Below are positions 16,085 through 16,825 of a stretch of DNA of 64,000 nt, piece by piece. Both the position numbers and the translations under genes were made by a program. The notes beneath the pieces are model-generated. The model had not been told where the DNA came from, did no database searches, and saw only the letters and a list, made by a program, of their open reading frames with translations. The stretch is taken from NCBI RefSeq assembly GCF_044324875.1, contig NZ_CP172185.1; one strand, written 5' to 3'. How positions within the stretch are numbered: position 1 is the stretch's first letter; the number at the start of each line of letters is the position of its first letter. The stretch comes from Escherichia coli. GTDB taxonomy: Bacteria; Pseudomonadota; Gammaproteobacteria; Enterobacterales; Enterobacteriaceae.

Positions 16085-16825
16085 ATGGCAGGTCATAGTA
16101 AATGGGCCAACACCAGACATCGTAAAGCTGCGCAGGATGCTAAGCGCGGTAAAATCTTCACTAAAATCATTCGTGAGCTGGTAACCGCGGCTAAGCTGGG
16201 CGGTGGTGACCCGGACGCTAACCCGCGTCTGCGTGCAGCAATTGATAAAGCATTGTCTAACAACATGACCCGTGACACCCTGAACCGCGCAATCGCACGT
16301 GGTGTGGGGGGGGATGATGATGCAAACATGGAAACCATCATCTACGAAGGTTACGGTCCTGGCGGCACGGCAATCATGATTGAATGTCTGTCTGACAACC
16401 GCAACCGTACCGTTGCTGAAGTGCGCCATGCATTCAGTAAATGTGGCGGTAACCTCGGTACTGATGGTTCCGTAGCTTATCTGTTCAGCAAAAAAGGCGT
16501 GATCTCCTTCGAGAAAGGCGATGAAGACACCATCATGGAAGCAGCGCTGGAAGCAGGTGCTGAAGACGTTGTGACCTATGATGACGGCGCAATTGATGTC
16601 TACACTGCATGGGAAGAAATGGGTAAAGTGCGCGACGCTCTGGAAGCGGCAGGTCTGAAAGCAGACAGCGCGGAAGTTTCCATGATCCCGTCCACCAAAG
16701 CTGATATGGATGCAGAAACCGCACCGAAACTGATGCGTCTGATCGATATGCTGGAAGATTGCGACGACGTGCAGGAAGTCTACCATAACGGTGAAATCTC
16801 TGATGAGGTTGCAGCGACTCTCTGA
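16085..16825 (+). CDS. yebC: YebC/PmpR-family transcriptional regulator
   Basis: 246-aa [35 protein letters not shown]... Confidence 0.9.

Follow-up and report, generated by a model that had tools for sequence, protein, structure and literature searches.

The phase-variable poly-G tracts of Campylobacter, Neisseria and Haemophilus have a range of lengths that includes 8. In such contingency loci the tract lies within the gene, and the gain or loss of a single G turns the reading frame off. Homopolymer runs of this length have also been described in E. coli, where the indel rate rises exponentially with run length (PMC8510543). In the mutation-accumulation experiments of the Foster laboratory, the 8-bp G.C runs of four tRNA genes, leuP, leuQ, leuV and leuT, accounted for 95 of the 117 tRNA-gene indels of mismatch-repair-defective E. 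coli lines (PMC8510543). A different use of a repeated base is made by the dnaX-type site, at which ribosomes slip by -1 on the heptamer A_AAA_AAG and meet a stop one codon past the slip. In a systematic E. coli survey, A-site GGN codons ranked with the least shift-prone ones; no value was lower than that of G_GG.G_GG.U, at 0.018% and below background, and the 21 motifs retained do not include G_GG.G_GG.G (PMC4066793). Finally, one-base homopolymer under-calls in assemblies lead the PGAP annotation pipeline to mark genes as 'frameshifted'.

The tract considered here is a run of eight G residues (G8) in the yebC gene of E. coli, within a window that comprises the whole 64-kb stretch of DNA analysed. 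It has the same run length and base composition as the leu tRNA-gene runs, and its expected mechanism is alike, namely replication slippage, corrected by mismatch repair, with +1 or -1 indels as the outcome. A hotspot of this kind calls for an uninterrupted run that is long enough to slip, a G/C run of about 7-8 or more, and G8 is such a run; those of 8 bp are documented outlier hotspots (PMC8510543). Length variants among related genomes are found at yebC as well. On the other hand, the yebC tract is protein-coding and belongs to a rare allele, its variation is partly sequencing error, and it is known here from assemblies. We consider it very probable that G8, which belongs to a minority allele, is an ordinary site of homopolymer indels and sequencing errors, a passive by-product with no function of its own.

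Table 1. Positions of the tract, its host gene and neighboring features in the 64-kb window.
Feature	Position	Strand	Remarks
IS1-like segment	~5221-5988		96.4% identical to a segment of UID2309220033
aspS-nudB spacer, match to V_AS5 (RF02818)	15495-15618	+	Sub-threshold Rfam match
nudB	15547-16056	+	Mechanical ORF, 169 aa
yebC CDS	16085-16825	+	246 aa; YebC/TACO1 family, subtype YebC_I (b1864 homologue); RefSeq and profile matches
Cluster of synonymous differences from other E. coli alleles	16207-16312		Gene positions 123-228; 106 bp
Heptamer G_GGG_GGG	16306-16312		Formal in-frame X_XXY_YYZ
G8 homopolymer, GGGGGGGG	16306-16313	+ (C8 on - strand)	Direct reading of the window
Derived synonymous site 1	16309	+	Gene position 225; G in the window, against C in the common GGC allele and T in one GGT allele
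Derived synonymous site 2	16312	+	Gene position 228; G in the window, against T in the common GGT alleles
TGA stop after +1 insertion (G9) or -1 ribosomal slip	16315-16317	+	Product 77 aa, ending ...GVGGG
TGA stop after 1-base deletion (G7)	16377-16379	+	Product 97 aa
ruvC	16857-17381	+	ORF list and RefSeq annotation; start ~30 nt downstream of yebC

The initial annotation had reported the run, its codons and the peptide GVGGDDD, and direct reading of the window confirms all three. Flanked by T at 16305 and A at 16314, the eight residues comprise the third base of GTG (V74), the whole of two GGG codons (G75 and G76) and the first base of GAT (D77), within the in-frame codons GGT GTG GGG GGG GAT GAT GAT (G73 V74 G75 G76 D77 D78 D79). 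These are the sole GGG codons among the 23 glycine codons of the gene. The ORF is 100% identical to the RefSeq yebC of E. coli strain C4 and encodes protein WP_000907234.1. Profile matches were judged against curated cutoffs: Pfam PF20772 covers residues 5-75 (108 bits; cutoff 36), PF01709 covers residues 82-235 (210 bits; cutoff 27), and the NCBIfam equivalog NF001030 matches with 379.9 bits (cutoff 243). The protein is thus a full-length member of the YebC/TACO1 family, with the N-terminal domain matched by PF20772 and the second and third domains by PF01709, and the tract falls in the short linker that joins the N-terminal domain to domains II/III. Annotated E. coli genomes have the gene order found here, aspS-nudB-yebC-ruvC-yebB-ruvA, and the score above the equivalog cutoff together with the orthologous position between nudB and ruvC identifies the host gene as yebC.

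The description of YebC as a conserved regulator requires some qualification. The word 'regulator' is taken from its database name, 'YebC/PmpR family DNA-binding transcriptional regulator', and E. coli YebC (b1864) relieves ribosome stalling at pentaproline in vitro, in the PURE system (PMC12234827). In Salmonella, deletion of yebC alone has no effect on growth, and depletion of yebC in an efp deletion background slows growth (PMC12234827). Loss of yebC is therefore expected to be tolerable when EF-P is present. The effect of a length change was derived by editing the 246-aa yebC in silico and translating the result. The prediction that a change of +1 or -1 truncates the protein holds, with products of 77 aa for G9 and 97 aa for G7. 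More generally, the G7 (or G10) frame gives 97-98 aa and the G9 (or G6) frame 76-77 aa, each ending at the stop listed in Table 1, and any +1 or -1 change reduces YebC to its N-terminal domain alone. Neither a promoter-like nor a terminator-like site was found in the spacer between yebC and ruvC, and ruvC is probably co-transcribed with yebC. Since ruvC begins about 30 nt after yebC with no such signal between them, a yebC frameshift could be polar on ruvC.

The view that runs of this length are uncommon is upheld by the window, in which G8 is the only G/C run of 7 or more, even though, under a plain first-order Markov model, the expected number of runs of 8 or more in a window is 0.73 (P about 0.5). 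For shorter G/C runs, the observed counts fall below the Markov expectation at every length: 149 against 219 for runs of 4, 25 against 49 for runs of 5, 4 against 11 for runs of 6, and 0 against 2.5 for runs of 7. Because G/C runs of 4-7 are depleted in the window in this way, by 1.5-fold or more, G8 is an outlier among the run lengths observed. Statistically, it is uncommon but not extraordinary. Local codon usage gives GTG-GGG-GGG at a Val-Gly-Gly site a probability of about 0.002, so chance is an adequate explanation of the run.

The allele was traced in 5,426 complete E. coli genomes, 5,425 of which have a match to yebC; the match is absent from the remaining one. One genome has two matches, and one match lies on a plasmid-classed record. 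Genes at least 99% identical to the window gene over its full length are found in 12 of the 5,425, the others being 95-99% identical. A 30-nt query centered on G8 matched 5,424 complete genomes: the exact G8 context is present in 10, a gapped match (G7) in one, and 90-95% identity in 5,413, whose codons are GGC GGT or similar. The ten G8 carriers (C4, HYM1, T-HYM1, PCN033, SCU-102, E300010, 19KM1776, 7CC, 06-00048 and MEI003) were assembled independently, and their sources are cow, duck, pig, dog, mink, human and environmental. The G8 allele is therefore rare in E. coli, at about 0.2% of strains. The K-12-like, O157, E2348/69 and O139 alleles read GTG GGC GGT GAT, one divergent allele reads GGT GGT, and strain MFDS1019527 is among the compared alleles with GGC GGT or GGT GGT. 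Near the tract, every difference from the common alleles is synonymous, and the encoded protein is the majority form. As a separate observation, the K-12-lineage YebC (WP_000907248.1) and the majority protein are distinguished by an A>G at gene position 157, the first codon position of residue 53 (K-12-like and 06-00048 alleles compared). The tract had been presented as a feature of yebC in general, which it is not, being a rare and derived allele. The proposed refuting comparison, whether other strains keep G8 stably, hardly applies to a tract as rare as this one.

A degenerate-pattern scan of species-representative genomes returned 65 Enterobacterales with the same peptide motif. In 63 of these, both glycine codons are GGC or GGT only; GTG GGC GGT is the sequence in the E. 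coli representative and in two further Escherichia species. The exceptions are Prodigiosinella (GTA GGG GGC) and a Cedecea sp. (GTG GGG GGG). Because the other Escherichia and 63 of the 65 representatives have GGC or GGT at both codons, G8 is derived, having arisen from GGC GGT when the third position of each codon changed to G. The Cedecea G8 (NODE_19, 13013-13050) lies at the same yebC codons, in a gene 82% identical to the window gene. Import of the G8 segment from another species was considered and rejected; Cedecea is the sole other carrier found, and its gene is locally no closer to the window gene than it is globally. By this comparison, the Cedecea tract is a convergence of independent origin and not a donor.

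How the two substitutions came together is less simple. Neither single-step intermediate (GGG GGT or GGC GGG) occurs with these flanks in the 5,425 complete genomes, and stepwise neutral drift does not predict that the two changes are never found singly. One multi-base mutation could account for this, as could the loss of the intermediates. Within E. coli, G8 is found on three haplotype backgrounds, which differ from the window at 0-3, 12 and 17 sites over the compared region and which are identical to one another between gene positions 210 and 342. This distribution would need either a short recombination patch (gene 211-341) or recurrence, and it fits a single origin followed by such a patch. 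Taken together, the occurrence of the pair on three backgrounds, and of neither change alone, suggests a multi-base mutation spread by a recombination patch of at most 131 bp, or lost intermediates. The window allele itself has the look of a recombinant mosaic, in that synonymous differences from other E. coli alleles are concentrated in one stretch of 106 bp (Table 1), into which 11 of its 21 differences from K-12 fall.

The passive by-product reading can be put as a short series of steps. Two adjacent synonymous third-position changes, GGC to GGG and GGT to GGG at Gly75-Gly76, joined short stretches of G into G8. Like long G/C mononucleotide runs in general, G8 is then prone to strand slippage in replication, with the loss or gain of one G, and to under-calling in sequencing. 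By either route the visible outcome is G7, and yebC appears as a frameshifted pseudogene encoding the N-terminal domain only (97 aa). The G8 allele is likely to be neutral or slightly deleterious, since it places two rare GGG codons in a gene that is otherwise without GGG.

The suggestion that the tract is a mutational hotspot or a sequencing-sensitive site is partly borne out. Its length does vary, as G7 is found in one complete genome and on five sequencing-run contigs, and some of this variation is clearly read error; the earlier interpretation as a whole is partly supported. The complete genome is UID2309220033 (NZ_CM142689.1, assembly GCF_054890225.1), one of the 11 carriers, in which PGAP marks yebC 'frameshifted'. 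Over the ~40 kb that align with the window, G7 is its sole homopolymer indel; it has intact A8 and T8 runs at window positions 24052, 27195 and 27705, and none of the 50 features apart from yebC is a pseudogene. This assembly is therefore not generally error-ridden, at least locally. The contigs were obtained by looking up the exact 97-aa G7 product in the Logan assembly index of sequencing-run contigs, where five contigs, each from a different run, have it as a called gene, all with G7 in the context of the G8 allele. The runs are SRR17649136, SRR35332976, SRR27186978, SRR22784801 and SRR30949543, of which the last two are expected to be noisy long-read or flow-based data. On L085, L086 and L087, the tract is the sole difference or indel relative to the window over 2.5-3.3 kb. 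The shortest two, L088 and L089 (2.2 kb and 1.2 kb), have A6 to A5 deletions nearby and fragmented neighboring genes, and because of these deletions their G7 is read as homopolymer under-calling, an artefact at least there. Other homopolymer deletions thus accompany G7 in two of six sequences, and the remaining four are clean elsewhere, as judged from assemblies. A metagenome contig scan with a G6-G10 pattern gave three chance matches, all outside yebC.

Haplotype comparison places UID2309220033, L085 and L086 in an E300010-like lineage and L087 in a window-like lineage. Over 3.3 kb, no SNP site separates L086 (G7) from E300010 (G8); UID2309220033 and L085, also G7, have in common a different state at 17786, on a neighboring branch. 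On these haplotypes, G7 is homoplasic on two lineage backgrounds, with at least two events in the E300010-like lineage and one in the other, and length differences recur independently between otherwise near-identical genomes. The G7/G8 distribution in the E300010-like lineage has two equally parsimonious readings, and one of them involves a reversion. Such a homoplasic pattern is expected from a hypermutable tract and also from a systematic read error. The G9 state is absent from the complete E. coli genomes, and its 77-aa product is not on record in the assembly index; contraction by one base only fits under-calling as well as a deletion bias.

A purely technical account would hold that G8 is biologically stable in all carriers and that every G7 arose by under-calling, in basecalling or in assembly. 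Such an account falls within the passive reading and departs from it only on whether any G7 mutation is real. It would explain why all the changes are contractions, why A6 to A5 deletions stand on two of the five G7 contigs, how L086 can otherwise equal a G8 genome, and why ten finished genomes agree on G8. In its one-base contractions, its two contigs with A6 to A5 and its flagged complete genome, the tract does resemble the under-calls behind other PGAP 'frameshifted' genes. It differs from general under-calling in being the sole indel over 2.5-40 kb in L085, L086, L087 and UID2309220033, and a generally noisy assembly does not explain those four cases. In addition, experiments in E. coli show that 8-bp G.C runs are genuine indel hotspots (PMC8510543). 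We judge a wholly technical origin of G7 somewhat less likely than not, and infer that some of the G7 cases are real slippage mutations.

The same G7 cases could be read as heritable OFF states of a contingency locus, in which G8 would be a reversible slipped-strand ON/OFF switch of yebC, and perhaps of ruvC through polarity. A length of 8 lies within the known phase-variable poly-G range, the OFF state stands on two lineage backgrounds with at least two events in the E300010-like lineage, and the expected tolerance of yebC loss with EF-P present, as well as the normal growth of the Salmonella deletion, would permit such a switch. However, a phase-variable tract is maintained across its lineage, and here 11 of 5,424 E. 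coli genomes carry G8 or G7. The yebC tract is neither conserved nor enriched; it is a derived rarity that about 0.2% of E. coli carry and that other Escherichia lack, as do 63 of the 65 related species. G9 is not found, and at least some G7 are read errors. The gene is a housekeeping translation factor and not a typical surface or restriction gene. E. coli is moreover normally mismatch-repair proficient, from which low indel rates at runs of 8 would be expected (extrapolating from PMC8510543). A switch function is thus very unlikely.

It is even harder to credit that the window's own G8 is an assembly error and that the true source sequence differs, for although long G runs are error-prone, the 246-aa frame is intact with G8 and the identical tract is present in 10 independently assembled complete genomes. 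The weakest proposal is a programmed -1 ribosomal frameshift at G8 that would yield a 77-aa YebC consisting of the N domain only, much as dnaX yields gamma. Formally, G_GGG_GGG is an X_XXY_YYZ slippery heptamer in the correct frame, the -1 frame reads GGA TGA with its stop one codon past the slip, much as at dnaX, and a small hairpin (GAUGAUG/CAUCAUC) begins just downstream. In contrast to the dnaX-type site, however, the motif is all-G, of the poorest class (PMC4066793), and the majority and ancestral GTG GGC GGT is not slippery, such that the motif is not conserved among orthologues. The 7-bp hairpin is weak and A/U-rich and has almost no spacer, downstream folds are no stabler than those of shuffled sequences (z = 0.19 and -0.59), which leaves the site without a stimulatory structure, and an Rfam scan of 15400-17500 returned no frameshift element and nothing at the tract. 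ALTERNATIVES, considered for G_GGG_GGG, was rejected on the same grounds: no conservation, no stimulatory fold and the poorest motif class in E. coli assays. Programmed frameshifting at this site can be dismissed as extremely improbable.

As a passive by-product, the tract is of little biological importance, an ordinary instance of an already known kind, and its use lies mainly in annotation. In the approximately 0.2% of E. coli that carry the allele, a call of yebC as a 'frameshifted pseudogene' is suspect until the tract length has been confirmed by accurate reads. The loss of YebC has some current interest, the protein now being regarded as a polyproline anti-stalling factor that overlaps in part with EF-P. 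Any G7 cases that are real would be natural yebC null strains.

Several observations were made in the surroundings of the tract. The mechanical ORF of nudB encodes 169 aa, whereas the RefSeq nudB, which starts at a downstream ATG, has 453 nt (150 aa); Logan gene calls use the long 169-aa form. UID2309220033 differs from the window by the orientation of an IS1-like segment, which is inverted there (L016 14147-14914, opposite strand) and annotated in that genome as an IS1 transposase with programmed frameshift. Upstream of yebC, the aspS-nudB spacer matches the Rfam family V_AS5 ('Vibrio RNA AS5') over the whole model length with 44.5 bits, which is statistically significant (E = 6.8e-8) though below the gathering score of 96, and may be a conserved structured element.
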